DNA from: a virus
Length of the DNA: 64,000 bases
Direction: 5' to 3' (one strand)
Virus record (IMG/VR): IMGVR_UViG_3300017917_003379
This document shows, piece after piece, positions 11,018 to 48,281 of the stretch (position 1 is its first letter; each line of letters starts with the position of its first letter). The translations under genes were made by a program, and so were the position numbers. The notes under the pieces were generated by a model. The model was not told the DNA's origin, ran no database searches, and worked only from the letters and a program-made list of their open reading frames with translations.

Positions 11018-11251
11018 ATGGAAAAGAAATTAGTATTAGAAATTTTAGAAAGGAATGGATATGATAAAGAATATTTTGAGGAAATGGATGATAATGTAAT
11101 TGAAGGAGGTACTGAAGAATGGATGGATGTGTTAAGTGATATAATTGGAAAAAATGCATATGATCAAGATAATTGGACTGAAGAGGATTATATGAAAGTT
11201 AGAAAATTTATTAATGTTATGGAAAATGATTTAGGATTAGAATTATTGTAA
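11018..11251 (+). CDS. Small acidic early protein; untagged paralogue of 47970..48281
   Basis: Shares EEWMDVLSDIIGKNAYDQDNWTEED. Confidence 0.8.
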   Translation: MEKKLVLEILERNGYDKEYFEEMDDNVIEGGTEEWMDVLSDIIGKNAYDQDNWTEEDYMKVRKFINVMENDLGLELL

Positions 11252-11266
11252 ATTTTTAAATAAAAG

Positions 11267-11294
11267 ATACCTCAGAAATGAGGTATTTTTTTTT
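11267..11294 (+). terminator. Intrinsic terminator (GAAA loop)
   Basis: atacctca-gaaa-tgaggtat plus T tract. Confidence 0.8.
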
Positions 11295-11354
11295 ATTAAT
11301 GAATAATATTTGTCAAAATTTTTTTATTATATTTAATTAATAAGATTAAAAAAT

Positions 11355-11618
11355 ATGATTAGTGTTAAAGTTTTAATAAATGAAATTGAAAAATTTATTA
11401 GTGAAAATGAGAATGAATTTGAATTTATTGTTGATTTTAAAAATATAGAAGATAATTGGGAAATTAATTTTGAAAAAAAATGTATTAATATTTTAGAATG
11501 TTGTAATATATTTGTGAGAGAAAATGATGATAATGAGTTAGAGAATTGGTTTAAAAAAGAAAATTTAATACATAAAAAGATTAAAATTAATAATTGTATT
11601 TTATATATAATGATGTAA
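11355..11618 (+). CDS. Small acidic early protein with an almost C-free coding strand
   Basis: ORF behind promoter 11312; a single C in the CDS. Confidence 0.6.
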   Translation: MISVKVLINEIEKFISENENEFEFIVDFKNIEDNWEINFEKKCINILECCNIFVRENDDNELENWFKKENLIHKKIKINNCILYIMM

Positions 11619-11708
11619 ATAAAATATATAAGGGTTATTATTAATGAATAATATTTGTCAAAATTTTTTTATTATATTTATATAAATAAAAAATAAAAAA
11701 TTAAAAGT

Positions 11709-11861
11709 ATGAAAAATAAAATGACTCCAGCTAATATTATTTTGATTGTTATTGTAATGATTGGATTGTTAAATGGACTCACTAGTTGTAAGACATCTGG
11801 TTATGGATGTCGTGGTAAAGAATCTTGGAATGGTATGGTAAAAAGAATTAATAGACAATAA
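11709..11861 (+). CDS. Small lipoprotein (50 aa, not in ORF track)
   Basis: MKNKMTPANIILIVIVMIGLLNGLTS|CKTSGYGCRG...; lipobox LTSC; behind promoter 11657. Confidence 0.7.
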   Translation: MKNKMTPANIILIVIVMIGLLNGLTSCKTSGYGCRGKESWNGMVKRINRQ

Positions 11862-11923
11862 AAAAAAATGAATAATATTTGTCAAAATTTTTTTATTATA
11901 TTTAATTAATAAAATTAAAAAAT

Positions 11924-12280
11924 ATGAATGAATTATTAGAAAAAATCTTGCATCAAGTAACTAACTATGATTTATTTAAAGTTAACTTTAATTTATGGGA
12001 AACAACATTGTTGAATGATAAGTATGATGAAGTAGTAAATAAAGGATTTATAAAAAATAATGAAATAACAAAAGAAGAATTCAATGAACTTCATAATGAA
12101 TTAAATAATAACTTTAATTTTAATTATTTCATCAGAAATTGGACAGTATTAGATGATGAAGAAACACGACATGAAGATGATATAAATAAAGATATAGAAT
12201 ATTTTAAAATTAAATATAACGTTGATGATAATACAGCAAATACTATGAAAATAATTATAGATAAATTTTTAAATATATAA
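11924..12280 (+). CDS. Acidic early protein
   Basis: ORF behind the last promoter copy (11881). Confidence 0.65.
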   Translation: MNELLEKILHQVTNYDLFKVNFNLWETTLLNDKYDEVVNKGFIKNNEITKEEFNELHNELNNNFNFNYFIRNWTVLDDEETRHEDDINKDIEYFKIKYNVDDNTANTMKIIIDKFLNI

Positions 12281-12344
12281 TAATAAAATATGATGTTGGT
12301 AAAAAAAAGTATACAGTTAAGTATATGCTTCTATAATATCGGGG

Positions 12345-12377
12345 CGATAGCGGAATGATAGCGAAACGATAGCGGAA
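12345..12377. repeat. 3 x 11-bp tandem repeat YGATAGCGRAA
   Basis: cgatagcggaa tgatagcgaaa cgatagcggaa. Confidence 0.85.
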
Positions 12378-12394
12378 TACTCCCACGGTAATTG

Positions 12395-12412
12395 CGGTCC
12401 ATCGATGGACCG
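12395..12412. repeat. Perfect 18-bp palindrome
   Basis: CGGTCCATCGATGGACCG. Confidence 0.9.
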
Positions 12413-12625
12413 TTTTTATTATGATAAAATGTGCCATATTCTCAACTCGCAAACACCCTCTCACCATCGACAGTATATACGCATATACCCAATAATATAT
12501 TTGCATTTTCCGTATAACCCCTTTTGATTTTCTTTGTAAAAATCCAAAATCTTCTTTTAACAAACTTTTTTTATATAAGCAAAGTATATACATTGATATT
12601 ATATAAACATAAAACATATATTAAT

Positions 12626-12811
12626 ATGAATAAAAAAATAATAGATATGTTTTTCACTAAAGAAGCATTTGAACAATATGCTCGTCGTTTACGTGAAGAA
12701 CAAGCAAAACAATATGGTATAACTTTAGAAGAATGGGATGAAGCCGTACGTGAAGGTAAAACCATTAACCCTAATACACAATCTAATAATACCCAGCAAC
12801 ATGAAATCTAA
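12626..12811 (+). CDS. Hypothetical protein
   Basis: In-frame ATG (MNKKIIDMFF...) within track ORF 12524..12811. Confidence 0.55.
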   Translation: MNKKIIDMFFTKEAFEQYARRLREEQAKQYGITLEEWDEAVREGKTINPNTQSNNTQQHEI

Positions 12812-13307
12812 TTTTCATTACGTAACACCAGAAGAATCTAAATATTATATAAAATTACCATACGATAAAGCGCATAAAGCTGATGCTTTTACTTTTATCC
12901 CCGAAGAAGATGGATGGGATCGTGTATACTATTTAGCAAATTCTATTATTGATCCTTCAGGTGGAGTACGTCCTGTTGAATATGTTTATATTTTAGTAAA
13001 CAAATCAATACCTGGAATGGTTAAGATAGGAATGACTACTAAAACTCCTGATGAAAGAGCACATGAAATATCTTCTCATACTGGTATTCCAACACCTTGG
13101 GTTCCTGTTTTTTCGTTTAAGTGTTATCGTTCTGATTTGTTAGAAGAAGAAATACATGAGTACTTTGCAGCTCAACGTGTTAGTGATCAACGAGAAATGT
13201 TTACTGTTGATTCATATACTGCTCAAAAAGTAATTGAAACATTAGGACAAAAATATTCTAGTGTACTACATGCTGACAGTTTACTTGAATTTAAAAATAA
13301 AAAATAA
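12801..13307 (+). CDS. T5orf172/MUG113 GIY-YIG-superfamily protein
   Basis: YVYILVNKSIPGMVKIGMTTKTPDERAHEI...LEEEIH...REMF. Confidence 0.8.
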   Translation: MKSNFHYVTPEESKYYIKLPYDKAHKADAFTFIPEEDGWDRVYYLANSIIDPSGGVRPVEYVYILVNKSIPGMVKIGMTTKTPDERAHEISSHTGIPTPWVPVFSFKCYRSDLLEEEIHEYFAAQRVSDQREMFTVDSYTAQKVIETLGQKYSSVLHADSLLEFKNKK

Positions 13308-13487
13308 ACGAAAAAATTTTTTATCTAATATTTTATGTATTTTAGATAGATAGCAATAGTTTTCGTTTTTTTATTACTTTTTATCAATTGTTATATTGGT
13401 TTTATAATATTTAAAAGTATATACGTAGGTAATATGGAGAAGTATAGATGCTGTGAATGGATTGTAGTTTTATAATATTTATACACG

Positions 13488-13727
13488 ATGAAACCATATA
13501 AAATTAAACTTGAAGACAAAGCTGCATTTTTAAATCGTTTGGAAAAATACGATATTAAAGTGGGCAGCTATGAAATAATTGATAATAAGTTAAAAGGTTA
13601 TTTTACTTTTACTCCTACAGACCCATCTATTGCTGATGTTGTAAAGGATATTTTGAAGCAATCTCCTAAGATTGATCAAATCAAAGAAATAATTCGTAAA
13701 ATTGTTCGTGAAGAACTTTTAAAGTAA
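13488..13727 (+). CDS. Hypothetical protein with C-terminal IKEIIRKIVREE tag-like helix
   Basis: ORF track; ATATTTAT motif upstream. Confidence 0.65.
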   Translation: MKPYKIKLEDKAAFLNRLEKYDIKVGSYEIIDNKLKGYFTFTPTDPSIADVVKDILKQSPKIDQIKEIIRKIVREELLK

Positions 13728-13856
13728 GTTTGGAAATATAAAATTTTTTCTATAACTTTAACCTACAGGGGGTTTGGAAATAAGGAAATGAGAGAGAATG
13801 AGGAGAGGAGAATGAGGGGGGAGGGGAAATTATATATTTATATATAAATACATATT

Positions 13857-14057
13857 ATGCGTTATAAAAACAATGTTTTAGATAAACTTAACCAAGCTGA
13901 TGCTTTAGTTAACCACTTAGTGGTGCAATTAAATAGAAATAATTCTCGTGATGAAGTTCTTGAGACTCTTACTTCTTTAAAAGAGCAAATTGAATCTACT
14001 CGTGAAATGGTTTCTATTGAACATGATGAATTTGCTCAACAATTTTCTGGAAGATGA
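13857..14057 (+). CDS. Small coiled-coil protein
   Basis: ORF track. Confidence 0.65.
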   Translation: MRYKNNVLDKLNQADALVNHLVVQLNRNNSRDEVLETLTSLKEQIESTREMVSIEHDEFAQQFSGR

Positions 14058-14332
14058 ATATAGTACTTTGGGTTTTAGGGATTCATTTAATTGAATTAAT
14101 GTTAATTGGTGGGTATCTTCTTATTAGAAAAAATAAGATTCTTGAAGAAACTGTAGCTAGCCAACAACAATATATTGATGCTATTAGTATTATTGTTAAT
14201 GATTCAAGTGAAACAATAAAACAATTAGATGCTAAAGGTGCTTTTGAATCTGATGATGAAGTGGGTACTTTTTTTAGAAATTTAAAAGAAATTCAAAGAG
14301 TATTAGATCAATTTAATCTTAATAAAAAATAG
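14054..14332 (+). CDS. Membrane-anchored protein
   Basis: N-terminal hydrophobic helix; FESDDEVGTFF motif. Confidence 0.65.
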   Translation: MNIVLWVLGIHLIELMLIGGYLLIRKNKILEETVASQQQYIDAISIIVNDSSETIKQLDAKGAFESDDEVGTFFRNLKEIQRVLDQFNLNKK

Positions 14333-14383
14333 TTTGGTTACGGTATTTTTTGTTTTTATATTTGATATTAAACATTAAATATC

Positions 14384-15166
14384 ATGTCATATTACTACGA
14401 AGAAGATTTAGATGTATATCTGGATAGAGAATTGGGGAAAGTTGCTTTAACTAAACATGGACAACCCCGTAAACGTAAACCCAAAGAACCTCGAGTTTAT
14501 TTTACTCAAGACACTGAAGAGGCTATTATTGAATATTTAAATTCATCTAATCAAGATGATCGTAATGCTATTTATAAAGATCGCATAGAATATGCTTTTT
14601 ATAAATTAGCAGAAAATATTATTCATACTTTTAAATTTTATTATACCGACTCAGATACAATTGAAGAATTGAAACATGAGGTGGTTACTTTCTTGCTTGA
14701 AAAACTTCATCTTTACAATCAATCTAAAGGTAAAGCATATTCTTATTTTGGTACTATTGCTAAACGTTATCTTATTATTTATAATAGCAATAATTATAAA
14801 AAACTCCAAGAACATGCTGATGTAGAAGAAATAGATGAGGATAAAAATATATTATATAATAATATCCGTGAAGAAGAAGAAAAATCCAACCCAGATAATT
14901 TTATAGACCAATACATATTATATGTTGATAAGCATCTTTATAGTATATTTCCTAAACAACAGGATGCTAAAACAGCAGATGCTATAATGGAATTATTTCG
15001 CAAACGTGAAACTTTAGAAATATTTAATAAAAAAGCTTTATACATTTATATTCGCGAAATTACTGACACTACTACTCCCCAGATTACTAAAGTTACTAAA
15101 AAATTAGATGCTTTACGTACTAAGTTGTATAATGAATATTATCAACATGGATACATAAAGATTTAG
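14384..15166 (+). CDS. gp55: Late-transcription sigma factor, T4 gp55-like
   Basis: YFTQDTEEAIIEY...FYKLAENII...KGKAYSYFGTIAKRYLI parallels gp55 motifs. Confidence 0.7.
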   Translation: MSYYYEEDLDVYLDRELGKVALTKHGQPRKRKPKEPRVYFTQDTEEAIIEYLNSSNQDDRNAIYKDRIEYAFYKLAENIIHTFKFYYTDSDTIEELKHEVVTFLLEKLHLYNQSKGKAYSYFGTIAKRYLIIYNSNNYKKLQEHADVEEIDEDKNILYNNIREEEEKSNPDNFIDQYILYVDKHLYSIFPKQQDAKTADAIMELFRKRETLEIFNKKALYIYIREITDTTTPQITKVTKKLDALRTKLYNEYYQHGYIKI

Positions 15167-15196
15167 GAATATCATATTTATTATTAAATATAATTT

Positions 15197-15592
15197 ATGA
15201 CTAACTTTAATGATATAAAATTATTTGGTGATACATCATTATCGGATATTTTTAAACAAGCTCATAAACGTACTAAAGATACTGATAAACAAATTAATGA
15301 TCTTATTGATACATTAAAACCACTTGCTTCATCTAATGCAGGTTCTGCAGTGATGCTTATGCCTACTGTTAAAGATTTAATTGATGTTAATGTAAAAAAT
15401 AATGAACAGTTAATCAAAATGGCTGGTATTGCGCAACGTGCTGCTACATCTGCTGCTAATTCGGGGCAAGCAGATTTATTTGATCCAACAGAATTACAAC
15501 AATTAATTGATGAACAACGTATTATTGAAGTTGAAGGTCAAAAATTACTTGAACAAACTCAAAATATTCAAAAACAAATTGATAATAAATGA
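15197..15592 (+). CDS. Hypothetical helical protein
   Basis: ORF track. Confidence 0.7.
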   Translation: MTNFNDIKLFGDTSLSDIFKQAHKRTKDTDKQINDLIDTLKPLASSNAGSAVMLMPTVKDLIDVNVKNNEQLIKMAGIAQRAATSAANSGQADLFDPTELQQLIDEQRIIEVEGQKLLEQTQNIQKQIDNK

Positions 15593-16758
15593 GTTTTAAG
15601 ATAAAAGAAAATTTAAGTGCTATAGTTGCTTCTACTTCAAAGCAATCTATTGCTCTTCCTACTTCTATTTCTCAAATAGGGAAAGTATATGGAGTTATAA
15701 TAGATGAAACTTCTGTTCCTAAAGAATTATTTGATAGAAGTGGAGGATTCAGTGGAATAGGCACTATATTTTATCTTGATTATAATCAATCAAAAAATAC
15801 AATTAATGTTGATTTAAATATATGTAAAACAGCTAAACCCTTCTATTCAGATAATCAAAATTATCCATTAATAGGAGAATTAGTATACATAATAGATGGT
15901 CCTAATCCGGCTAGTCAAATTCAAAGCAATCAAACTCAAAAATATTATTTAGGTACTGTTAATGTTTGGAATAATAATCAACAAAATTCACTTACATCTA
16001 ATCCCTTAGGAAAAACATTTACTGAAAATGCTGATATAAGAAATTTATTAAGTTTTGAAGGAGATAGAATTTATCAAGGAAGAAAAGGTAATGGTATTAG
16101 ATTTGGTAGTACTGTAAAGTCTAAATCTAATAAAAATGAATGGAGTAGTGTAGGCAATGATGGTGATCCTATAACTATACTAGTAAATGGATATGTTACT
16201 ATTAATACAGGTTCATTAGCTCCAAATATTGAAGAGATAAATAAAGAGATGTCTTCTATATATATGACATCTACTCAAATGATTCCTTTATTACCTGATA
16301 GAAATAATACTTTAAATCCCTTAACTCAACCTTTATTACCTAATAAATACATTTTTCCTCAAATTATAGTAAATAGTGATAGAATAACTCTTAATTCTAA
16401 GAAAGATGAAGTAATGATATTTGCTAAAACTAATGTTGAGGTAAATACAAATAATATAATAAATTTAAATGCTGGGGGAAGAGTACATTTGAATACTCCT
16501 ATAATATGGTTAGGAACTAAAAAAAATAATACTCAACCAACAGAACCATTAATATTAGGAAACCAATTAAAAGATTTACTTAATCAATTATTTGAAGTAT
16601 TAGAAGCATTAGGAAATGATTTATCTTCTGTAGTAGTACCACCTCAAGGTTCTCCTTTAGTAGGAGTTAATATTGCTGGGTCTCGCGCTGTTAGTAAACT
16701 TCAAGAAATACATAGAAAAATTGAAAATATTACTTCTAAAAATAACTTTACTGTGTAA
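15589..16758 (+). CDS. Baseplate hub/spike protein (gp5/VgrG-like)
   Basis: YPLIGELV OB-like segment, FEGD..QGRxGNxIRFGS, beta-helix-like NSDRITLNSK stretch; upstream of gp25-like gene. Confidence 0.55.
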   Translation: MSFKIKENLSAIVASTSKQSIALPTSISQIGKVYGVIIDETSVPKELFDRSGGFSGIGTIFYLDYNQSKNTINVDLNICKTAKPFYSDNQNYPLIGELVYIIDGPNPASQIQSNQTQKYYLGTVNVWNNNQQNSLTSNPLGKTFTENADIRNLLSFEGDRIYQGRKGNGIRFGSTVKSKSNKNEWSSVGNDGDPITILVNGYVTINTGSLAPNIEEINKEMSSIYMTSTQMIPLLPDRNNTLNPLTQPLLPNKYIFPQIIVNSDRITLNSKKDEVMIFAKTNVEVNTNNIINLNAGGRVHLNTPIIWLGTKKNNTQPTEPLILGNQLKDLLNQLFEVLEALGNDLSSVVVPPQGSPLVGVNIAGSRAVSKLQEIHRKIENITSKNNFTV

Positions 16759-17963
16759 TGGCTAAGATATCCAACATATCATCTTTAATTTCTCCAAATT
16801 TAGTAAATTCAGCTAAAAATAATTTACCTAATAAACCATCAACATCAGTAACTACTTCTGTTGTTTCTAATAAAAGCCAACTAGAAAAACAATTAAGAGA
16901 TTTAAACCAACAAGCAAATAAAGTTAATAAAGAGTATGATAATTTAATAAAAAAAACTCAAGAAGATCCTAATTTATCTCAAGAAGAAAAAAATCAACAG
17001 ATAAATAATTTACAACAACAACGACAAAACGAACTAAATGTAATACAAAAAAATATTGCTGATGTTAATGGAAAATTATCTAAAACTAATGTAGATCCTT
17101 TAAAATCAGCTAAAGAAGAAGAAACCAAAATTAATAAAAGAATTAGAAATAGTATTTCTAAATCTAAAAAAGGACAAAGACGAGCCAGTTTAAATAGACT
17201 AAAACAAATTCAAAAGTCTATACCTAATCTTGTTGCTGCTCAATTAACTAATGTTTTTATTAGATTAGTTGAACAAAATGGTAAATTACAAGATTTGGTT
17301 GATAGAACTAATGAAGTTATAGATAATGCTACTACACCTGAACAAATAAGTAATGCTATTGTTTTAAGAAATAATGCTTTAACTATTCTTACTAATCAAG
17401 AACAAAGAATATTAACTATAAGACAAACATTAGATAGACTACAAAGAATAATTCAAATATTTACTTTAATAATAAGAATTATTGAAAGGATTTTAAGATT
17501 GCCTTCACCTATTCCTATACCACCCCCAATAAAAATAACACTCCAACCTGTTCTTCAAAGATTATTAAAAATATTAGAAGCATTAAATATAGTATTAAAT
17601 ATAGCTATTCCTATTTTAGATTCTATATTAATAGATATTGAAGATTTAAAATCACAATTACGTGACATTAATAATAGATTAGATGACAATGCAGCTAATA
17701 ATTTACTTAATCTTAACACAGATATATTAGGTAATAATTCATTTGGATCAAATCAATTCCCTCCATATAAAGGGTTTAGATTTGCTTTAAAAGAAGAAAA
17801 TAATCCTAAATTTGTAATAAGAGGTAATAAACGTCATTTTGCTGTAGCTATTAATACTGATAATGTAGAAATATTAAAAAGTGAACCTTCTTTTACATTA
17901 GATCCAAATGATTTGATAGAACAATTAAAGTTAATAATAGATCAACAAAATTTACAAAGTTAA
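16758..17963 (+). CDS. Coiled-coil structural-module protein
   Basis: ORF track; long heptad stretches. Confidence 0.65.
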   Translation: MAKISNISSLISPNLVNSAKNNLPNKPSTSVTTSVVSNKSQLEKQLRDLNQQANKVNKEYDNLIKKTQEDPNLSQEEKNQQINNLQQQRQNELNVIQKNIADVNGKLSKTNVDPLKSAKEEETKINKRIRNSISKSKKGQRRASLNRLKQIQKSIPNLVAAQLTNVFIRLVEQNGKLQDLVDRTNEVIDNATTPEQISNAIVLRNNALTILTNQEQRILTIRQTLDRLQRIIQIFTLIIRIIERILRLPSPIPIPPPIKITLQPVLQRLLKILEALNIVLNIAIPILDSILIDIEDLKSQLRDINNRLDDNAANNLLNLNTDILGNNSFGSNQFPPYKGFRFALKEENNPKFVIRGNKRHFAVAINTDNVEILKSEPSFTLDPNDLIEQLKLIIDQQNLQS

Positions 17964-17975
17964 ATATTTATATAT

Positions 17976-18329: not shown

Positions 18330-18330
18330 T

Positions 18331-18753: not shown

Positions 18754-18754
18754 A

Positions 18755-20575: not shown

Positions 20576-20642
20576 AATAATAATATTTAGTTGGTTTAAA
20601 AAATAATAATTTACCATATTTATATATAGTAATTATATAATT

Positions 20643-36494: not shown

Positions 36495-36545
36495 TATTTA
36501 TGGGCAATACCTATTTAAACCAATAAAAATAGTTTAGAATTGATT

Positions 36546-37411: not shown

Positions 37412-37415
37412 TAAT

Positions 37416-38051
37416 ATGAATAAATTAGATATCTATGAAGTTGAAGATTGTGGTTGTTTTGGCCCCAAATTAACTTTAAATGAAGGACAAGATAATATTA
37501 TGTTATCTGAAGGATTAAAATACCATATTCAAGAAGGTAGGATGCTTATACATAATATTTATCGCCCATTATCTAAATCCTATTTTGCTTTAGTACGTGA
37601 AGCACGTGATTTATATAATAAAGGATTATTATCTGTAACTGAGGATGATATGGAACTTTTAGAAAGCAATTTAGGTGAATTCGGTATATATAATGGTATT
37701 AAAGTTCCACTTGATTATGTATTTGATATTGATGAAGTTACCAACTATATTAATGAAGCTACTAAAGATAAAAAGAAAACACCCCCATTAGGCAAACCTA
37801 AACGTGGTGGATCTAAAAAATTCTATGTTTATGTTCGTAAACCAGGTGGAGGAATTAAAAAGGTATCATTTGGAATGGCAGGTGGGGGATTGCGTGCTAA
37901 ATTAAATAACCCAAAAGCACGTCAAGCCTTTGCAAAACGTCATAAATGTTCACAAGCAAAAGATAGAACAACTGCTCGTTATTGGAGTTGTAGACTTCCT
38001 CGTTATGCTAAACTATTAGGCTTCAAAACCAGCTTTAGTGGTTATTGGTAA
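37416..38051 (+). CDS. Conserved phage protein with basic C-terminal domain (DUF6321-like)
   Basis: KKFYVYVR...KKVSFG...AFAKRHKC...ARYWSCR; internal LNE/LSE/INE sites. Confidence 0.55.
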   Translation: MNKLDIYEVEDCGCFGPKLTLNEGQDNIMLSEGLKYHIQEGRMLIHNIYRPLSKSYFALVREARDLYNKGLLSVTEDDMELLESNLGEFGIYNGIKVPLDYVFDIDEVTNYINEATKDKKKTPPLGKPKRGGSKKFYVYVRKPGGGIKKVSFGMAGGGLRAKLNNPKARQAFAKRHKCSQAKDRTTARYWSCRLPRYAKLLGFKTSFSGYW

Positions 38052-38065
38052 TAAATCGAAAAATC

Positions 38066-38695
38066 ATGAAATACTACAACTTTTTCAAATTTCTAGAAGA
38101 TAAAGGAGAAAAGAAAATCCCTATCAAAGTAAAATTAATACAAAATCCAAACTACCAAATCACACAAGCTGACGCGACACCCGATTTGAATTTATACGAT
38201 ACTCCAATCACATCTCTTGGAAATTTAACTTCAGTTGGTGGCAGTTTGAATTTATACGATACTCCAATCACATCTCTTGGAAATTTAACTTCAGTTGATG
38301 GGAATTTGAATTTACAATATAGTAATGTCAAATCTCTTGGAAATTTAACTTCAGTTGGTGGAGATTTGAATTTATATGGTACTCAAATCGAATCTCTTGG
38401 AAATTTAACTTCGGTTGGTGGGAATTTGTATTTGATAGGAACTAATGTTGAATCTCTAGGAAATTTAACTTCGGTTGGTGGGAATTTGAATTTGGAAAAT
38501 ACTAATATAGAATCTCTTGGAAATTTAACTTCGGTTGGCGGGGATTTGTATTTAAATAATAGTCCAATAAAATCTTTTGGAAATTTAACTTCGGTCGGTG
38601 GATATTTGAGTTTATACAATACTCCCCTATCAAAAAAATACACTGAAGAGCAAATTCGATCAATGGTTGATGTTAAAGGTGAAATATATTTATAA
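38066..38695 (+). CDS. 20-aa LRR-like repeat protein
   Basis: About 7 units of LxLxxTxIxSLGNLTSVGGx; 60-bp tandem DNA repeat. Confidence 0.8.
   Translation: MKYYNFFKFLEDKGEKKIPIKVKLIQNPNYQITQADATPDLNLYDTPITSLGNLTSVGGSLNLYDTPITSLGNLTSVDGNLNLQYSNVKSLGNLTSVGGDLNLYGTQIESLGNLTSVGGNLYLIGTNVESLGNLTSVGGNLNLENTNIESLGNLTSVGGDLYLNNSPIKSFGNLTSVGGYLSLYNTPLSKKYTEEQIRSMVDVKGEIYL
38183..38622 (+). repeat. 60-bp coding tandem repeat
   Basis: atctcttggaaatttaacttc(a/g)gttggtgg core at 60-nt period. Confidence 0.9.
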
Positions 38696-38699
38696 AATC

Positions 38700-39815: not shown

Positions 39816-39829
39816 AAATAAAAATACAA

Positions 39830-40368: not shown

Positions 40369-40410
40369 AAATTAAAATTTTACAATATTTATATATATAA
40401 ATTAAACAAA

Positions 40411-40995: not shown

Positions 40996-40996
40996 T

Positions 40997-41374
40997 ATGG
41001 AAAACAATGCTTTAATGGGCCAATTTGTATCTACATTACTTGCTGCTCGTACACAAGCCCATATATTTCATCTTCAAACACCCTCGTTTGCTGCTCATAA
41101 AGCATTAAATGAATTTTATGATGCTATTGTGGATTTAACAGATAGTATTGTTGAATCTTACCAAGGTAAATATGGTATTATTACTGGATACGGCAATGTT
41201 TCTTTACAAGAATACCAAAGTTGTGAAGGTATTATTATGTACTTTAACACTTTATGTATGTTTGTAGAAAAAAGTAGACAAATGTTAGCTCAAGACTCAT
41301 ATATTCAAAATCAAATTGATGAAGTTGTTGCATTGATCAACTCTACAATTTATAAACTACGCTTTTTAAAATGA
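40997..41374 (+). CDS. Ferritin/Dps-like protein (DUF5856-like)
   Basis: AHIFHLQT..FAAHKALNEFYD...ESYQGKYG. Confidence 0.75.
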   Translation: MENNALMGQFVSTLLAARTQAHIFHLQTPSFAAHKALNEFYDAIVDLTDSIVESYQGKYGIITGYGNVSLQEYQSCEGIIMYFNTLCMFVEKSRQMLAQDSYIQNQIDEVVALINSTIYKLRFLK

Positions 41375-41709
41375 TAAAATTACTTGATATTCTAGAAAAC
41401 CTAGATCCAGTAGGTAAAGAAGATGCTGATATTAATAACGATGGTAAAGTAAATAAAACAGATAAATATTTAGCTAATCGTCGTAAAGCAATAGCTGCTA
41501 ATCTTAAAGAAGGAGATCATGAAGTAGCAATGGCCGTTTCTAGCCTAGAATCAATTGCCAAAGCAATTGTTGAATTAAGACAAAAACTTGGAAATGTTGA
41601 ACGTAACATTCCAGGTTGGATTCAAGATCATATAGCAAAAGCAGAAAACTATATTGAGCAAGCTGCTCAAGGTTTTCATGAATTAAAACATATAGATGAA
41701 AATAAATAA
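41371..41709 (+). CDS. Tagged (family A) protein with EF-hand/dockerin-like loop
   Basis: MIKLLDILE leader; DADINNDGKVNKTD. Confidence 0.65.
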   Translation: MIKLLDILENLDPVGKEDADINNDGKVNKTDKYLANRRKAIAANLKEGDHEVAMAVSSLESIAKAIVELRQKLGNVERNIPGWIQDHIAKAENYIEQAAQGFHELKHIDENK

Positions 41710-41787
41710 ATTACTGTAATTAAAAATAGTAATTTTAATTTTAAAAATCCTTATAGATCATAAAAATAAGGAAAACTAAAGAAACCA

Positions 41788-42360
41788 ATGAGTAAAACAT
41801 TATTATTAGAAAAATATATTAAAGTTGCTGTTCGTAAAGCATTAAAAGAGCAAGAAGAACAACAACGTAAAGCAGAAAAAGCAATATATCTTGTATATCG
41901 TTTTCCTGGTTTGAAAAAAATAATGGAAGACTTAATGTCTCCTGCTTTTGGTCGTTATATTAATGATGTTGATATTGTTGCTCCTAAACCAACAACATTT
42001 AAAATTACCTTAATCAACAATCAAGATTTTACTGTTAAATACCTTGGTAAAGGTAAATTTAACATTAAAGTATCAGGCAAACAATACCATTCAGATAATT
42101 TAGGAGAAGCAGAACGTTGTTCTCAAGCTATAGCTGATTTATTAGAATTAAACTATTCAACAGCAGAAGGTAAAGAACAAACTAGCCCTACTCCAGGAGC
42201 AACTGAACCTGGTTCTACTTCTCCAACATCTTCAACAGAATTGGGTGCTGCTGAATTAGGTCCTGAATTAGCAGCAGCTGAAGAAACACCACCTCCTACA
42301 ACAGCAAGTACTCCTGAAGAAACACCCGCACCAGAAGAAGAAACACCAGCTGAAGCTTAA
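41788..42360 (+). CDS. Hypothetical protein with acidic Pro/Thr/Glu tail
   Basis: ORF track; leader YIKVAVRKALKE. Confidence 0.65.
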   Translation: MSKTLLLEKYIKVAVRKALKEQEEQQRKAEKAIYLVYRFPGLKKIMEDLMSPAFGRYINDVDIVAPKPTTFKITLINNQDFTVKYLGKGKFNIKVSGKQYHSDNLGEAERCSQAIADLLELNYSTAEGKEQTSPTPGATEPGSTSPTSSTELGAAELGPELAAAEETPPPTTASTPEETPAPEEETPAEA

Positions 42361-42380
42361 AAATATTAAATATATAAAAT

Positions 42381-42581
42381 ATGTTAATTAACGAATTAAA
42401 AGCAATGCACCTCAGAGTAGGAGATGTTTTTACTATGAATGCTTCTTTAGGTAATTTTAAACAAGGAGAAGAAGTTACTGTTAAAAGTATTAAACCTTCT
42501 GGTGAGGACATAGTTGTTACTTTGTCTAACTCTAAAGGAGTAAAAGATGTTTTTTATTTTGATAAAAACGATGAAGTTTAA
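42381..42581 (+). CDS. Small beta-barrel-like protein
   Basis: ORF track. Confidence 0.55.
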   Translation: MLINELKAMHLRVGDVFTMNASLGNFKQGEEVTVKSIKPSGEDIVVTLSNSKGVKDVFYFDKNDEV

Positions 42582-42637
42582 AATTTGGTCTTTTAAATCT
42601 TCTTTTATATTTTTATGACCAATAAACTTTTACCGTT

Positions 42638-43390
42638 ATGGATAAGAAAATAAAAAGGCTATTTTTTGATATCGAAACAAGTCCTAATATAGGATTATTT
42701 TGGACTGCTGGGTATAAGCAAACAATAAGCCACGAAAATATAATCAAAGAAAGAGCTATAATATGTATTTGTTATAAATGGGCTGGTGAAGATAAAGTAT
42801 ATTCCTTAACGTGGGATGAAAATCAAAATGATAAAAAATTACTAGAACAATTTGTAGAAATAGTTAATGAAGCTAATGAAATTGTAGGCCATAATGGTGA
42901 TCGTTTTGATCTACCTTGGATCAGAACAAGATGTTTATATCACAGAATACCTATATTTCCTAATTATACTACATTAGATACTCTTAAAAATTCTCGTTCT
43001 AGATTTAAATTTAATAGTAATAAATTAGATTATATTGCTAATTTTTTAGGATTAGGAAAAAAAATTCATACTGGATATGATTTATGGAAAAAAATAGTTT
43101 TAGATAAAGACAAGCAGTCTCTAGAACAAATGGTAGAATATTGTAAAAATGATGTTATTTTACTTGAAAAAGTATATAATGAACTTTCACCATATATTCC
43201 TGCCAAAACCCACCACGGTATTATATTAGGAGGAGAAAAACATTCCTGTCCTGAATGTGGATCAATAGATATGAGATTCTCACAAAAACGTTATACTGCT
43301 TTGGGCACTCCTCGAATTCAACTTCAATGTAATTCTTGTCACAAATATCATACTATTTCTCAAAAAACGTATGAGTCTGTTAAAGAATAA
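42638..43390 (+). CDS. RNase H-fold 3'-5' exonuclease (DEDDy) with C-terminal Zn ribbon
   Basis: FFDIETS, GHNGDRFD, YCKNDV; CPEC...CNSC. Confidence 0.85.
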   Translation: MDKKIKRLFFDIETSPNIGLFWTAGYKQTISHENIIKERAIICICYKWAGEDKVYSLTWDENQNDKKLLEQFVEIVNEANEIVGHNGDRFDLPWIRTRCLYHRIPIFPNYTTLDTLKNSRSRFKFNSNKLDYIANFLGLGKKIHTGYDLWKKIVLDKDKQSLEQMVEYCKNDVILLEKVYNELSPYIPAKTHHGIILGGEKHSCPECGSIDMRFSQKRYTALGTPRIQLQCNSCHKYHTISQKTYESVKE

Positions 43391-43426
43391 TATTTATTGG
43401 CACAATATTTTAATTATATTTGCCAA

Positions 43427-43813
43427 ATGGAATTTATTACTGAAGTAAAACGTTTACAAAAACTAGCAGGAATATTAACTGAACAAGAAAAACAACCAGA
43501 AGAAGAAATTTCTTCTGCTGATACTCCTGAAACTCCATCTGGTTCTATTACTAAGGCTGAAGCAAAACAGCTTATAAAAGGAACAAAAGGTAAATTCTTT
43601 ACTGTTACTTTCATTAAAAAAGACGGCACTACTCGTGTTATGAATGCCCGTTTAGGTGTAAAAGCATACCTTAAAGGAGGAGAACTTCCTTATGATCCTG
43701 AAGCAAAAGGATTAATACCTGTATTTGATATTCCTAAACGTGAATACAGAATGGTGAATTTAAATACTATTATTAAGTTAAAGATTGGTAATAACGAATA
43801 CGATGTAAAATGA
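43427..43813 (+). CDS. Tagged (family C) SH3/WYL-like protein
   Basis: MEFITEVKRLQKLAGILTE leader; FFTVTFIKKDGTTRVMNARLG. Confidence 0.6.
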   Translation: MEFITEVKRLQKLAGILTEQEKQPEEEISSADTPETPSGSITKAEAKQLIKGTKGKFFTVTFIKKDGTTRVMNARLGVKAYLKGGELPYDPEAKGLIPVFDIPKREYRMVNLNTIIKLKIGNNEYDVK

Positions 43814-43864
43814 TTAAACTAATCCACATAAATACGATGTAAAATGATTAAACTAACCCACATA
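43797..43864 (+). repeat. 34-bp tandem duplication spanning a tag start
   Basis: aatacgatgtaaaatgattaaactaa(t/c)ccacata x2. Confidence 0.9.
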
Positions 43865-45883
43865 TTAGAAAATATACTATTTGAATATAGTCAAGCTCAA
43901 ATTGACAAAACTATTAAAAGATGGGAAAATGAACCTAACTTTGATAAAAATGTCGCTTTAAATTTAATAAAAACATTTGATAATAAAAAAAGTGGATTAT
44001 CAAGTAAATTAGATTTAGTAGTATTACCTGATAAACTAAAACAAGGGAATAATTATCTTAATATAGATCTATATTCATATGAAGATATGAAACGATTAAT
44101 AAATTCTATCCCTGAAAATCCTGAAACTGTTAAAAAAACAGCTATTAATAGATTTGTAGAGTTATTTGGAATAAATAAACAAACTGCTCAATCATATGTT
44201 GCTCGTTTTTTATATAATAAAGATAAATTAAAATTAGCAGCAAAAGAAGGACTAGAAGATATAGGAGTAACTAAAGAAGAAGTATTAAATTTAATCCCTA
44301 AAAAACTTCAACGAAATGAAGCATTTTTAGATCCACGTAACTGGAATTGGATTTCATTTGAACAAATAACAGATGCTCTATTCCCTAGTCAAAAAACTTC
44401 AGAAGATAATATTAACTTAGCTACTGCAGAAGGTGATAAAGTGTATGATAAAGATGGAATAGAAATATATAAAGGAGATGATATTCAAAAATGTATATCT
44501 TATAATCCTGTTATAGAAAAAACAAAAAAGAAAAAATACGGGTGGTGTGTAACTCAAGTAGGAAATACTAATTATGATTTTTATAGATTTAAAAATCAAG
44601 CCCCTACTTTTTATTTTGTATTTGATAGAAACAAACCTTCTAGCCCCGAACATGCTCTTTTTGATGATGAATGGCATGCTTTTGTAATACAAGTAACTGC
44701 TGATAAGAAAACATATATAGTAACAGGAGCTAATAATAGAAGAGATATTGATACTGGAGATAAAGGATGGGAAGGTATAGCAAACATAGTACCTCCTGAT
44801 ACATGGAATAAAATTAAAAATTTAAAAGATTATTTTGTACCTGTACCCTTATCTGCTGTAGAAAGAGCAAGAAAATATGCTTCTGGGATGGATTTATCTT
44901 TAGATGAATTTAAAGAACTTTCTCAAGATGAAAAGATATTATATATACAAGGAAAAGCTTCTAAAAATCAAATATCTACTGATATTTTAAAAATCTTACC
45001 AAAATATAAAATATCATATCAGGGTAAAACTACAACATTAGCTAATATTGCTATAGATAGTGGACAAGAAATTCCTTATTCTGTATTGAAAGATAACGAA
45101 GCTTTAGCTAAAAGATATGCTATATTTAGATTTAGACATACTAATTATGGTAATTTACCTATTCCCCTTCCTTTTGTAAAATATTTAGACGAACCTGCTA
45201 AAGAAAAATATTTAAAAACATTCGATAATAATCTTACATTTGAATATATAGAGAAATATTTTGGAGAAAAATCAGCTCAAAAATATGTAAATGAACAAAT
45301 CAAAACTCTTAACTATCTCCCCCCAGGTGCTATAAAATATATTACAGATCCTAAAATAAAAGATTTATATTTATCTTATAGTAAATTATTCAAAAATTGG
45401 CAAAATTCGGCTAATACTAATATTGATGAAGAAAGATTAGAAAATTCAAAACAAATGCCTATACAGGAAATCGATCCTGTTCCTATAATGTATGATGATT
45501 GGAAAGAATTTTCTAATAAAGAAAAACAAATTATATATAATTTAGCAAAAACTGCAGATAACAATACGGAAGAATATTTAACAGTTAGTTATGCTGTACC
45601 CTTCTTTTTACAAGATGGTGAACAAAAATACGCTCTACTCCCAGAAGATGATACTTATGAAAATTGGGTAATAACCGATATGAATGGAAATATAATATCC
45701 GAATTTAAATCAATCGAATCTATATCATTAAAAAATAAACCTGTATATGGTGGTTACCCAGATTATAGTAATATAGAAAATGCTAAAAGGATATATAAAT
45801 TGTCTGATTTGCAGATAAATGGTAAACCTGTTTCTTTAAAAGAAATAAAACGTATATTAAAATTAGCAGGAATATTACGTTAA
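43844..45883 (+). CDS. 679-aa doubly tagged protein with central WC-motif domain
   Basis: N-terminal MIKLTHILENILFE; C-terminal LKEIKRILKLAGILR; YGWCVT...FYFVFD. Confidence 0.7.
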   Translation: MIKLTHILENILFEYSQAQIDKTIKRWENEPNFDKNVALNLIKTFDNKKSGLSSKLDLVVLPDKLKQGNNYLNIDLYSYEDMKRLINSIPENPETVKKTAINRFVELFGINKQTAQSYVARFLYNKDKLKLAAKEGLEDIGVTKEEVLNLIPKKLQRNEAFLDPRNWNWISFEQITDALFPSQKTSEDNINLATAEGDKVYDKDGIEIYKGDDIQKCISYNPVIEKTKKKKYGWCVTQVGNTNYDFYRFKNQAPTFYFVFDRNKPSSPEHALFDDEWHAFVIQVTADKKTYIVTGANNRRDIDTGDKGWEGIANIVPPDTWNKIKNLKDYFVPVPLSAVERARKYASGMDLSLDEFKELSQDEKILYIQGKASKNQISTDILKILPKYKISYQGKTTTLANIAIDSGQEIPYSVLKDNEALAKRYAIFRFRHTNYGNLPIPLPFVKYLDEPAKEKYLKTFDNNLTFEYIEKYFGEKSAQKYVNEQIKTLNYLPPGAIKYITDPKIKDLYLSYSKLFKNWQNSANTNIDEERLENSKQMPIQEIDPVPIMYDDWKEFSNKEKQIIYNLAKTADNNTEEYLTVSYAVPFFLQDGEQKYALLPEDDTYENWVITDMNGNIISEFKSIESISLKNKPVYGGYPDYSNIENAKRIYKLSDLQINGKPVSLKEIKRILKLAGILR

Positions 45884-45948
45884 AATATATAAGAATAAAA
45901 AAATACTATTAAATTAATCAATAACAACGAATAAATATAATATAAATA

Positions 45949-46806
45949 ATGATTAAGCTTTTAAATATATTACGTGAAATATTATTACAAGAACTAATTG
46001 ACAAGGAAGGTCATTTTCAGTTTCGTATATCAGAAAGAGGTAATGTGTTAGATATATTAAATTTGAATGATATTCCTCTTAAAGATTATAAATTTACTGA
46101 AGTAAAGGAAAAACTTAAAACTAATATTTCAACTGAATTGAAAGATAGAGCTGAAAGAATATTAGAGAAAGATATACCCTCATCTATTACTTATGGTATA
46201 GGTATTAAAATACTTAAACCTGTATTAGTAGTTGATGGAGAAAAATATCCTCTTAAACTATATGCTATATCAACTAAGGAAAAAAAAGACAAAGATGGAA
46301 ATGTTATTGAAAAAATAAAAAAAGATAACATAGGTACATTATATTTTGCTGTTGTTTCCGATAATGAAGCAAAAACATTAATGTTAGTAAATAAAGAAGA
46401 TGATAATGATTTATATTTTCAAATAAAGAATCATATAAATAGAAAAGGAGGATATAAAGAAGCTAAAATTTTAACCCCACCGAATTATATCTATGAAATA
46501 GATTTAGATGAATTGATGACAGGTATAAGTAAAACAAATCAAAATATAAATTTGATTGATCCTGCTACATTAGAATATACATTAAGAACAGATTATAGAA
46601 AAGATGCCAAATTTGTCCATAAAAAATATGGTACTGGAACAATCATCAATACATCATCAGGAAGTGGTGGAAAAGGAGATAGTAAAGGGAAACTAGATTG
46701 GATAGAAGTAGATTTTGGTAAACCTGTAGTAAAAGGAGGTAAACTAATACCATATCGTAGAATTGAAAACATATTAACATTAGTATCTCCTTTAATTAAA
46801 AAATAA
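45949..46806 (+). CDS. Tagged (family A) hypothetical protein
   Basis: MIKLLNILREILLQE leader; C-terminal HKKYGTGTI...VDF SH3-like segment. Confidence 0.65.
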   Translation: MIKLLNILREILLQELIDKEGHFQFRISERGNVLDILNLNDIPLKDYKFTEVKEKLKTNISTELKDRAERILEKDIPSSITYGIGIKILKPVLVVDGEKYPLKLYAISTKEKKDKDGNVIEKIKKDNIGTLYFAVVSDNEAKTLMLVNKEDDNDLYFQIKNHINRKGGYKEAKILTPPNYIYEIDLDELMTGISKTNQNINLIDPATLEYTLRTDYRKDAKFVHKKYGTGTIINTSSGSGGKGDSKGKLDWIEVDFGKPVVKGGKLIPYRRIENILTLVSPLIKK

Positions 46807-46853
46807 CATAAAAATAAATTATCAAGATAAACTATATATTAAAATATATAAAA

Positions 46854-47363
46854 ATGGAACAACACATTAATGAAATTCGTAGAATGCAACAATTAGCAGG
46901 TATTAATGAAATTAAAGTATCTCAACCGACAAATTCAAAAAATAATAATATTAGTTTATATAATTTTTTAAATAGACATATTGAAGAATTTGCTAAAGAT
47001 CAACTTCAAACAAATGAAAATTTATCAATATTTGTTTTTAATGAATATTATAATTGGGATACTAATCCTGCAAATTTAGAAGATGAAAATTATCCATACG
47101 ATACAGAATTTAAAGATATGCCTCAACCTATTCAACAAGATATGATAAATTATTTAGTAGAAAAAGGATTAGAATATTATGGGGAATGGAAATCAGAAGA
47201 AGATAACGATAAAACTTACGGAATAGAATGGAATTTAGATTACGGTATGGTATATAATTGGACAAATAAAGCCTACCCAGGACCTGCAGAAGATTTGCAT
47301 CATGGTTGGATTGAACAAAAGTTTAAAGGAATAATATTTTATGTTTTATATTTTAATGTATAG
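46854..47363 (+). CDS. Tagged (family C) acidic protein
   Basis: MEQHINEIRRMQQLAGINE leader. Confidence 0.7.
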   Translation: MEQHINEIRRMQQLAGINEIKVSQPTNSKNNNISLYNFLNRHIEEFAKDQLQTNENLSIFVFNEYYNWDTNPANLEDENYPYDTEFKDMPQPIQQDMINYLVEKGLEYYGEWKSEEDNDKTYGIEWNLDYGMVYNWTNKAYPGPAEDLHHGWIEQKFKGIIFYVLYFNV

Positions 47364-47396
47364 TTTTAATGAATAAGATAATATTATTATAAGTAT

Positions 47397-47424
47397 AAGT
47401 GCCTCATAAAGGTACTTTTTTTTT
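47397..47424 (+). terminator. Intrinsic terminator
   Basis: aagtgcct-cataa-aggtactt plus T tract. Confidence 0.6.
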
Positions 47425-47465
47425 GTCAAAATGAAATTTATATTTTTAACTTAAATAAATAAGTT

Positions 47466-47957
47466 ATGAATATATTCTATATCCACCCAGACCCAAAAAT
47501 AGCAGCTCAGCAACTGGCAGATGACCATATTCGTAAAATGCAGATTGAATCTGCACAAATGTGTTGTACTGCTCATTGGTCTGTAGGTAACGAAGCTCCA
47601 TATAAGCGAGCTCATTTTAATCATCCTTCAACAAAATGGACACGAGAATCTATTCAACATTATCGTTGGTTAGTTCAACATGGGTTAGAAATTTGCAATG
47701 AATTTATTAAACGTTATGGTAAACGTCATAAAACACAAGATGTATTAGAATGGTGTCGTGATAATGAACCTAATATTCCTGATAATGGGTTTACTCCTCC
47801 ACCACAATGTATGCCGGATGAATATAAAAAAGAAAATACTATAGAAGCATATCGTAAATTTTATATTAAAGATAAAATAAAAATTAAAGGATTAAAATGG
47901 GAAAAATTAAAAAACATACCAGAATGGGCTTTTATTGATATTTATTACCACAAGTAA
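47466..47957 (+). CDS. Pyrimidine-dimer DNA glycosylase-like protein (DenV superfamily)
   Basis: MNIFYIHPDP..AAQ..D.HIRKMQIESAQM...HPSTKW...PQCMPDEYK. Confidence 0.7.
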   Translation: MNIFYIHPDPKIAAQQLADDHIRKMQIESAQMCCTAHWSVGNEAPYKRAHFNHPSTKWTRESIQHYRWLVQHGLEICNEFIKRYGKRHKTQDVLEWCRDNEPNIPDNGFTPPPQCMPDEYKKENTIEAYRKFYIKDKIKIKGLKWEKLKNIPEWAFIDIYYHK

Positions 47958-47969
47958 AAATAAAACATA

Positions 47970-48281
47970 ATGAAAAAACATATTAACGAAATTTATAGAA
48001 TGCAGCAATTAGCTGGTATTAATGAAATACGAGTAGCAACTCCTGGAAAGAGTCACTATTTGAATTTTTCTCAAAATGATGTAATTAATATTTTAACTAA
48101 TAACGAAATAGATATAGATGATGAAGAAGGAATAGATACAGATTCAGAAGAATGGATGGATGTGTTAAGTGATATAATTGGAAAAAATGCATATGATCAA
48201 GATAATTGGACTGAAGAGGATCATATGAAAGTTGGAAAATTTATAAAGGTTGTGGAAGAAATGGGCATTGAATTTATATAA
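47970..48281 (+). CDS. Tagged (family C) acidic protein; paralogue of early gene 11018
   Basis: MKKHINEIYRMQQLAGINE leader; 98-bp near-identical block. Confidence 0.8.
   Translation: MKKHINEIYRMQQLAGINEIRVATPGKSHYLNFSQNDVINILTNNEIDIDDEEGIDTDSEEWMDVLSDIIGKNAYDQDNWTEEDHMKVGKFIKVVEEMGIEFI

Follow-up and report, generated by a model that had tools for sequence, protein, structure and literature searches.

The T4-like phage genome considered here carries two genes for the same small acidic domain, a stand-alone version downstream of an early-type promoter (copy A) and a version placed behind an N-terminal leader (copy B), and we are highly confident that these old paralogs share a recent gene-conversion tract of about 98 nucleotides. 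Positions refer to the window, i.e., the whole stretch of 64,000 nucleotides that was analyzed (Table 1); in the complete 155-kb genome the domain occurs exactly twice, as copies A and B. We lean towards the overall explanation that the domain is a payload supplied in two formats, injected with the DNA or made early after entry, whose copies have recently undergone conversion. New here are the acidic payload family and the conversion tract.

The two blocks match at 96 of 98 nucleotides, both in frame in + strand ORFs, and the longest uninterrupted identity is 75 nt. When the 41 A/B mismatches were permuted 200,000 times, no equally long stretch arose (p < 5e-6), which bears out the near-identical 98-bp block claimed in an earlier note on this DNA; a repeat search lengthens the match to 138 nt (88%, repeat family D17). 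Outside the block, identity drops to 61/100 nt in a codon alignment restricted to homologous parts. The same note had described the flanks as diverged, which is correct for the nucleotides, but it lacked the point that the flanks remain homologous as protein, so that A and B are full-length paralogs of one domain. The two differences within the block change the residue in each case, Tyr (TAT) versus His (CAT) and Arg (AGA) versus Gly (GGA) in A and B, and the same codon is used at 30 of the 31 identical residues. The pattern is that of gene conversion: near-identity that begins and ends abruptly and includes synonymous sites, homologous but diverged flanks, and orthologs without such identity.

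In principle the block might be held constant without recombination, either because its nucleotides form a selected RNA or DNA element or because the protein is under strong purifying selection, and its first half does encode the best-conserved motif of the family. However, no part of the family varies more than the second half, which is nevertheless the same in A and B. In comparisons across genomes the block shows only 51-70/99 nt identity, with the same codon at ~53-79% of identical residues and at most 62% residue identity in any relative. These values contradict this reading, to which we assign a very small probability, and nucleotide-level constraint was rejected. An assembly artefact, with reads of one locus collapsed into the other, is every bit as improbable. 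The sequence is a metagenome assembly in which the long perfect run could tangle a de Bruijn graph, but such an error would fuse 11 kb to 48 kb and not exchange an internal segment twice; moreover, the copies were assembled as distinct sequences differing at two positions, and each in-frame block is bounded on both sides by diverged homologous sequence of the same domain. Mis-assembly was rejected on these grounds. Because no relative exceeds 70/99 nt to copy A, the block is best read as a recent gene-conversion tract rather than as a product of constraint or mis-assembly, in agreement with the conversion event that the earlier note had proposed. Mechanistically, non-crossover recombination would recently have transferred the ~98 nt between the copies, whereas crossing over between the two blocks, which are direct repeats, would remove 37 kb with tail and baseplate genes. 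As to the donor, the nearest neighbors within the block are a mixture of tagged (leader-bearing) and untagged family members. Three of the four cytosines of copy A fall in the block and one in the 136 nt of flanks, numbers that are too small but hint at transfer from B to A.

Table 1. Features of the two acidic-domain loci (window positions)
Feature	Position	Strand	Basis
Intrinsic-terminator-like hairpin ending the preceding early cassette	10916-10945	+	13-pair stem, then T run
Early-type promoter of copy A	10965-10992	+	-33-like box TTGTCAAAAT, -7-like TATATTTAAT; in repeat families D3, D4, D9
Copy A, stand-alone 77-aa acidic domain protein without leader	11018-11251	+	ORF; family HMM E 5e-33; AF2 pLDDT 94, pTM 0.81; pI 4.05, net charge -14
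Conversion block, copy A (residues 33-65, covering helix 3, a loop and the beginning of helix 4)	11114-11211	+	96/98 nt to 48147-48244; secondary structure from AF2 model
Terminator-like hairpin closing the copy A cassette, then next early promoter	11262-11291	+	Hairpin; D4 repeats spaced 345 nt apart
Terminator-like hairpin ahead of the copy B unit	47397-47417	+	Hairpin prediction
Early-type promoter upstream of denV-like gene, heading unit 47466-48630	47423-47452	+	Regex match at 47423
denV-like pyrimidine-dimer glycosylase gene, directly 5' of copy B	47466-47957	+	Pfam Pyr_excise E 2e-6; phrog_624 E 1e-50
Late-type motif ATATTTAT, 24 nt 5' of copy B ATG	47938-47945	+	Enrichment upstream of + strand gene starts
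Copy B, 103-aa protein (leader, linker, acidic domain)	47970-48281	+	ORF; family HMM; structure prediction
Class C leader of copy B (residues 1-19, ending I-N-E)	47970-48026	+	Leader DNA family D13, common to genes at 46854, 48319, 53994; predicted helix, then disordered linker
Conversion block, copy B	48147-48244	+	96/98 nt to 11114-11211
Following gene of the unit, with class C leader and unrelated body	48319-48630	+	Shared leader; no family match (Pfam, PHROGs)
First terminator-like hairpin 3' of copy B	48693-48717	+	10-pair stem, 7 G-C pairs

That copy A has an early promoter and no tag, as claimed previously, was confirmed: the gene lies downstream of an early-type promoter and between two terminator-like hairpins, and its leaderless ORF cannot be extended upstream. 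The regular expression for this promoter type finds no site on the - strand and 27 on the + strand, of which 18 fall in the 2-12 kb region. The composite of terminator hairpin and early promoter is repeated on both sides of the gene, the 80-nt repeat family D4 recurring at 10945, 11290, 11635 and 11859. In T4-type phages, PeSL cassettes consist of small early ORFs held between repeated units of terminator hairpin and early promoter, which provide homology for modular exchange (PMC2839356, PMC4122927). Copy A has the same bracket and may be regarded as a stand-alone gene in a PeSL-like cassette (terminator, early promoter, ORF, terminator), the differences being that its promoter is of the Bacteroidota style (-33, -7) and not of the sigma-70 type, and that exchange at the repeats is here presumed.

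For copy B, the earlier note had claimed a late motif and a family C tag. Both are present: the protein starts with a class C leader ending in I-x-E, and ATATTTAT precedes its start codon. On the + strand, 48 of the 67 copies of this motif are found at most 45 nt upstream of a + strand gene start (4.3 expected), including upstream of the baseplate operon and of the terminase gene. What does not stand is a cleanly late expression. An early-type promoter (47423) lies 547 nt upstream of copy B, and the first terminator predicted after it is at 48693; since read-through from this promoter into copy B is possible, the early/late contrast between A and B is not clean. Judging from these signals, copy B may be made both early and late, as are the internal proteins of T4.

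The class C leader is common, as DNA and as peptide, to four genes of the window (46854, 47970, 48319 and 53994) whose bodies are unrelated. In copy B, I-N-E occupies residues 17-19, inside a segment (residues 15-30) that is predicted to be disordered, and the leaders of relatives likewise end in I/L-x-E. In T4, the prohead protease gp21 cuts after L/I-x-E, and capsid targeting needs only 10 leader residues (PMC9026906). The genome encodes a gp21-type protease (Peptidase_S77, genome positions 68892-69323, 105.6 bits, above the curated cut-off), and an acidic ORF at the scaffold position, immediately before the gp23-type capsid gene, has an end resembling the class C core motif. Three features of T4-type cargo carrying a capsid targeting sequence (CTS) are found here, namely a shared leader on unrelated proteins, L/I-x-E in a predicted accessible segment, and a gene for the corresponding protease. 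By analogy with T4 CTS proteins, copy B would be loaded into the prohead through its leader, which the gp21-type protease would then remove; we give this packaging and clipping about an even chance. The two copies had been put forward as the best internal support for the tag hypothesis. Leader, protease gene and the link between tag and promoter type are consistent with it, but remain circumstantial.

This link recurs in related contigs. Among tagged loci, 8 of 11 have ATATTTAT within 45 nt upstream, and among untagged loci 6 of 8 have the -33-like box with TATATTTAAT; the untagged ORFs already have their greatest possible length, which leaves no room for a leader by extension. The gene arrangements therefore probably reflect two formats of expression and leader, namely untagged with early-type and tagged with late-type signals. 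Contigs L031 and L036 repeat the order denV, tagged family member, FAD oxidoreductase, their denV-like neighbor being 83% identical, and the slot of copy B is hypervariable, with neighbors 70-83% identical and the payload only 37-38%. Homologs of the early neighbors of copy A are found near untagged members in four other contigs (L006, L008, L033 and L040). In the complete relatives, genomes of 173 kb and 154.8 kb that each have terminal repeats, denV is absent or located elsewhere, which makes the synteny check uninformative there.

The idea that a genome holding both formats represents a conserved strategy was not upheld, because each of the two complete relatives has a single copy. As this copy is tagged in both, double supply may be a transient redundancy. 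In such a scenario, the tagged gene in the denV-FAD slot would be the resident one, made early and late, the copy A cassette would be newly acquired from another phage via PeSL-like repeats, and the tract would be a by-product of T4-type recombination with no adaptive meaning. The single-copy relatives, the early-type promoter and internal late motif of the copy B unit, and the production of T4 IPI-III in quantity both early and late (PMC6071114) all speak for it. So do the PeSL-type repeats around copy A (PMC2839356, PMC4122927) and the observation that, outside the block, the nearest relatives of copy A are untagged and those of copy B tagged. On the other hand, both copies are intact ORFs showing no signs of decay, and their flanks have diverged by 39% at the nucleotide level. 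Because of this divergence the paralogs must have split long before the conversion, possibly in separate phage lineages. Altogether we consider transient redundancy rather unlikely.

The acidic domain itself constitutes an undescribed family, confined to uncultured T4-like phages with Bacteroidota-style promoters. It comprises ~70 aa, with a pI of 4.05-4.4 in every member and a net charge between -8 and -20 (-17 for the domain of copy B), and is confidently modeled in copy A as four helices (AF2 pLDDT 94, pTM 0.81). About 76 representative clusters were recovered (E <= 1e-3), all from uncultured phages; the present phage, too, is known from a metagenome only. Neither copy matched any family in Pfam-A or PHROGs at E <= 0.01. 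Foldseek searches of the domain against PDB and BFVD gave no match at E <= 0.001 and the ESM Atlas no usable one, while VIA-align against 48,161 chains reached a best Z of 4.0 with kleisin and Slx4 helical domains, which is uninformative. Likewise, no match was obtained in 50,697 deposited phage genomes, either by blastn in distant mode with both loci or by tblastn with copy A, and no counterpart of the domain was found in the literature. A broad 32-sequence alignment of the family was too divergent for a locus scan.

Among the 62 full-length members, 38 carry a leader ending in Glu (mostly class C) and 24 stand alone. The tree of these 62 domains is poorly resolved; tag state changes nine times on the best tree, compared with ~19 times in shuffles, and the well-supported branches force only one change. 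In longer tagged proteins the domain often follows unrelated middle parts, which were without a Pfam match above cut-off in the 10 long members searched; such an arrangement is as compatible with a common handle or adaptor as with an effector. One may accordingly ask whether the domain is not an effector but a constant C-terminal handle of head cargo, balancing charge against packed DNA, aiding ejection, or docking the variable middles as an adaptor, with the stand-alone early forms competing, regulating or the like. Its C-terminal place in nearly all 76 clusters fits such a role, as do the constant/variable/constant mosaics P0007, P0009 and P0011, in which the leader is 86-95% and the domain 93-95% identical but the middle merely 24-31%. 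However, an acidic protein does not neutralize the charge of DNA, and a purely intracapsid role leaves unexplained the 24 bare domains, most of which follow early-type promoters. We regard the handle as improbable.

The proposed two-format supply has a direct precedent in T4. T4 Alt, which is packaged in the head and injected, and ModA modify the same residue of the RNA polymerase alpha subunit (PMC2988021, PMC9026906). Alt and ModA/ModB are related ADP-ribosyltransferases, and their one activity comes both from packaged cargo, whose propeptide a protease removes, and from untagged early products. Differently from these enzymes, the present payload lacks an enzyme signature, being an acidic helical domain of ~70 aa, its leader is a ~19-residue class C peptide instead of the Alt propeptide, and the two copies share a recent conversion tract. 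T4 also injects the anti-restriction protein IPI*, and its internal proteins are made early and late (PMC3012670, PMC9026906, PMC6071114). IPI, IPII and IPIII are, as here, small and fast-evolving proteins with a shared N-terminal leader ending at an L/I-x-E site for gp21, and copy B has the same combination of early-type and late-type signals. In contrast to the highly basic internal proteins (PMC6071114), however, our domain is acidic. Its leader is longer than the T4 CTS and apparently of another sequence class, the untagged paralog is a separate gene, and many family members have an additional variable middle domain. T7 Ocr, ArdA and T4 Arn are acidic DNA-mimic anti-restriction proteins; like the domain, they are small, extremely negatively charged and supplied very early. 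This likeness is one of composition and timing only, no Ocr-, ArdA- or Arn-like chain being present among the Foldseek and VIA-align results and no sequence likeness having been found.

Returning to the preferred reading of a two-format payload, the domain would act in the host cell during the first minutes, probably by using its acidic surface to bind a host protein. That it is an early host-directed binder is a tentative proposal. A domain needed in the first minutes could therefore be supplied either by injection, when tagged, or by immediate early expression, when untagged. Different phages would use one route or the other, the present genome having both, and conversion would keep the helix 3-helix 4 surface alike in copies A and B. 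A further-reaching version, which we give a small chance, sees the domain as a specificity module against a single host target, supplied both by injection and by immediate early synthesis. Conversion would then spread newly selected helix 3-helix 4 variants (concerted evolution in an arms race), and, across the family, the conserved leader and C-terminal domain would be two constant arms for recombination in a cassette system by which head cargo takes up unrelated middle domains.

T4-like phages of Bacteroidota are common in water and soil, and what they inject is almost wholly undescribed. The family reported here offers a natural tag-on versus tag-off comparison of one folded domain across dozens of phage lineages. 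Together, the conversion tract and the constant/variable/constant mosaics point to recombination at short conserved DNA as a way in which such genes are rebuilt. If the leader is a head-loading signal, the payload would be needed at time zero and would rank as a good candidate for a new protein of host takeover or counter-defense, and the leader itself would give the engineering of such phages a portable loading tag.

The 155-kb IMG/VR record (28% G+C), whose first 64 kb make up the window, encodes exactly two copies of the acidic domain, the untagged copy A and the leader-bearing copy B, both intact. The match that the earlier note had reported between 11114-11211 and 48147-48244 was recovered with the same count, 96 of 98 nucleotides being identical and in frame in both ORFs; once this block is extended, the repeat finder returns a pair of 138 nt at 88% identity (D17). 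The flanks have diverged as that note described, yet they are homologous: in a codon alignment of the homologous parts, 61/100 positions are identical outside the block, as against 96/98 within it, and the longest perfect run is 75 nt. Since the two copies can be aligned along the entire body of copy A, this alignment makes them paralogs of one domain of about 70 aa, more than unrelated genes with a common block.

Positions of the two copies and of the signals around them
Feature	Position	Strand	Remark
Terminator-like hairpin before copy A	10916-10945		
Copy A	11018-11251	+	ORF, 77 aa
Terminator-like hairpin after copy A	11262-11291		
Terminator heading copy B unit	47397-47417		predicted
Early-type promoter of copy B unit	47423		precedes denV-like gene
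ATATTTAT motif of copy B	47938-47945		24 nt before ATG, without -33 box
Copy B	47970-48281	+	ORF, 103 aa
First predicted terminator downstream of copy B	48693-48717		

By sequence comparison, the block is a recent conversion tract between copies A and B, as had been proposed; when the 41 mismatches were permuted 200,000 times, an equally long stretch never arose. The two mismatches in the block are both residue-changing (Tyr/His and Arg/Gly), and the same codon is used at 30 of the 31 residues identical between the copies. Relatives lie far lower: every other family member matches A or B at no more than 62% of residues in the block, nucleotide identity is at most 70/99 in all related loci, and these share only about 53-79% of codons at common residues. 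Near-identity is thus confined to a single genome, and neither a constrained protein nor a constrained RNA or DNA element can be its cause. A collapsed assembly is very unlikely, because two positions distinguish the copies and each copy sits in its own diverged homologous flanks. Outside the block copy A is closest to untagged and copy B to tagged members; inside it, the nearest neighbours of both are a mix of the two. The copies form direct repeats separated by 37 kb in which baseplate and tail genes lie; a crossover would remove these genes, so that a non-crossover product would be the only viable outcome of their recombination. Three cytosines fall in the 98-nt block of copy A, versus one in the 136 nt of its flanks, a distribution that weakly suggests transfer from B to A and is not significant. 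Note also that the whole coding strand at 11018-11618 is nearly cytosine-free: copy A has 4 C in 234 nt and the gene at 11355-11618 a single C in 264 nt, compared with 6-10% C for the early genes nearby.

The payload family is not previously described. The domain of copies A and B has no Pfam or PHROG family and no match among 50,697 deposited phage genomes, and a search of the ESM Atlas gave no usable match. Searched against 1.84 billion representative proteins, its profile finds 76 clusters at E <= 0.001 (60 at E <= 1e-10), in which the domain is nearly always C-terminal. All 62 full-length domains are strongly acidic (pI 4.05-4.4, net charge -8 to -20). Within the family, conservation peaks in the motif that the first half of the block encodes, around an invariant Trp, and is lowest in the second half. 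AlphaFold2, run from the family alignment, predicts four helices and a tiny beta bridge (pLDDT 94, pTM 0.81); with this model, Foldseek returned nothing at E <= 0.001 from PDB and BFVD, and the top VIA-align hits among 48,161 chains, small kleisin and Slx4 helical domains at Z 4.0, are uninformative.

A leader is present in 38 of the 62 full-length members, mostly of class C and in a few cases of class A or B; the other 24 lack one. Many tagged members contain an extra middle part of 50-200 residues without a Pfam match, and within clades the ends are conserved and the middle is unrelated. In P0007, P0009 and P0011 the leader is 86-95% and the domain 93-95% identical, the middle only 24-31%; with P0017 and P0023 included, leader and C-terminal domain are 73-95% identical around unrelated middles of 3 to 136 residues (24-34%). 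This mosaicism suggests that cassettes are exchanged between two conserved arms. Genes of this family seem to be rebuilt routinely by recombination at short stretches of conserved DNA, the process that also produced the 98-nt block. The mosaics leave room for a second reading, in which the domain is a C-terminal handle common to these proteins and not the effector itself. In L013:5398-6192, a related locus, and in P0006, a class C leader is followed by about 20 residues, a class B leader, the middle part and the acidic domain, and such tandem leaders may reflect fusion of two cargo genes.

The N-terminus of copy B is a class C leader ending I-N-E at residues 17-19, and its DNA is common to three other genes with unrelated bodies (D13). 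In the full-length model of copy B the leader folds as a helix of its own at low confidence, and the linker after it is disordered (residues 15-30, pLDDT < 50), while the acidic domain stays at pLDDT 83-93. In T4, gp21 cleaves after L/I-x-E and ten leader residues are enough for capsid targeting (PMC9026906). The genome encodes a gp21-type prohead protease (Peptidase_S77, 105.6 bits) and a gp23-type capsid protein. The scaffold position, immediately ahead of the capsid gene, is taken by an extremely acidic 359-aa ORF (G000:C1:71424-72503, about 7.4 kb past the window end) whose terminal motif ARMQKLANIK resembles the core of the class C leader, RMQ-x-LAGI. Taken together, the leader end, the protease, the capsid protein and the scaffold motif make head loading and clipping of copy B plausible.

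The promoter ahead of copy A recurs almost verbatim before neighbouring genes, and this layout, with its hairpins, corresponds to that of the PeSL cassettes in T4-type phages (PMC2839356, PMC4122927). A regular expression for promoters of this early kind, in which a -33-like box is combined with a -7-like TATATTTAAT, has 27 matches, all of them on the + strand and 18 of them at 2-12 kb. Of ATATTTAT there are 67 copies on the + strand as against 18 on the - strand; behind 48 of the 67, a + strand gene begins within 45 nt (4.3 expected), and both the baseplate operon and the terminase gene start behind such a copy. Some copies double as the -7 element of early promoters, so it is the absent -33 box that distinguishes the putative late type. 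The earlier note had called copy B late, and its ATATTTAT motif agrees; that reading missed possible read-through. Copy B is the second gene of its unit, after a denV-like gene headed by an early-type promoter, and no terminator is predicted from that promoter through copy B until the one downstream; therefore copy B may be transcribed early as well as late. These dual signals resemble the production of T4 internal proteins, which are made in large amounts both early and late (PMC6071114).

Elsewhere in the window, small paralogous MORN-like-repeat genes, each with its own early-type promoter, form a row at 132-4327, where repeat family D1 has seven copies of 253 nt, and a tRNA-Leu gene (anticodon TAA) lies at 6835-6921 within the early region. 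The ORF 38045-38695 contains at least seven tandem 60-nt units (38152-38684, 62-83% identical), which encode a 20-residue protein repeat. A 402-aa protein at 54812-56020 matches phrog_1314, 'HNH endonuclease' (E 8.5e-56); it adjoins an AAA-type ATPase gene that has an early-type promoter at 56023.

The link between tag and promoter type, which had been drawn from one genome, holds across the family. Two IMG/VR scans gave about 20 distinct loci. In 8 of 11 distinct tagged loci (this genome counted) ATATTTAT lies <= 45 nt upstream; of the other three, one has a variant motif and two directly follow the preceding gene. Six of the eight untagged loci have a -33-like box with TATATTTAAT, often behind a hairpin, and every untagged ORF is maximal, so that no leader could be added by extension. 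Two relatives, of 173 kb and 154.8 kb, are complete and have terminal repeats; each has a single, tagged copy, and both formats together were found on no other contig from the scans. The two formats look like alternatives among lineages, and their co-occurrence in this genome may be recent. In loci L031 and L036 a denV-like gene (83% identical), a tagged member and an FAD oxidoreductase stand in the same order; the payload there has only 37-38% identity with copy B, which by this comparison makes the slot between the flanking genes hypervariable. Homologs of copy A's early neighbours adjoin untagged members in L006, L008, L033 and L040, and synteny agrees with two separate resident slots for copies A and B. 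The similarity of ORF 48768-49292 to oxidoreductase families is confined to their N-terminal FAD/NAD Rossmann part; an ORF without assignment (49258-49923), a GNAT acetyltransferase (49899-50315) and a family-less 259-aa ORF come after it, and the region 48768-51106 may represent an oxidoreductase gene that was split or interrupted.

We propose that copy B would be loaded into the head and clipped, and that the acidic domain would act inside the newly infected cell. Our best guess is that it binds a host protein via its acidic surface, because both supply routes would deliver it at the start of infection and bare-domain early genes are common. By analogy, dual supply has a clear precedent in T4, where Alt is injected from the head and its relatives ModA and ModB are early products, Alt and ModA modifying the same RNA polymerase alpha residue (PMC2988021). 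T4 IPI* is likewise an injected anti-restriction protein with a capsid targeting sequence (PMC3012670); the leader class of this phage differs from the T4 leaders. Of the earlier interpretation, the conversion, the leader and the promoter types stand with the shared block, and a cleanly late copy B does not. New here are the payload family, the conversion statistics, the read-through caveat, the single-copy relatives and a tag-on versus tag-off pattern spanning an entire family. The latter offers a clean and testable natural experiment on head-cargo tagging, and the domain a candidate family of time-zero proteins from uncultured phages.
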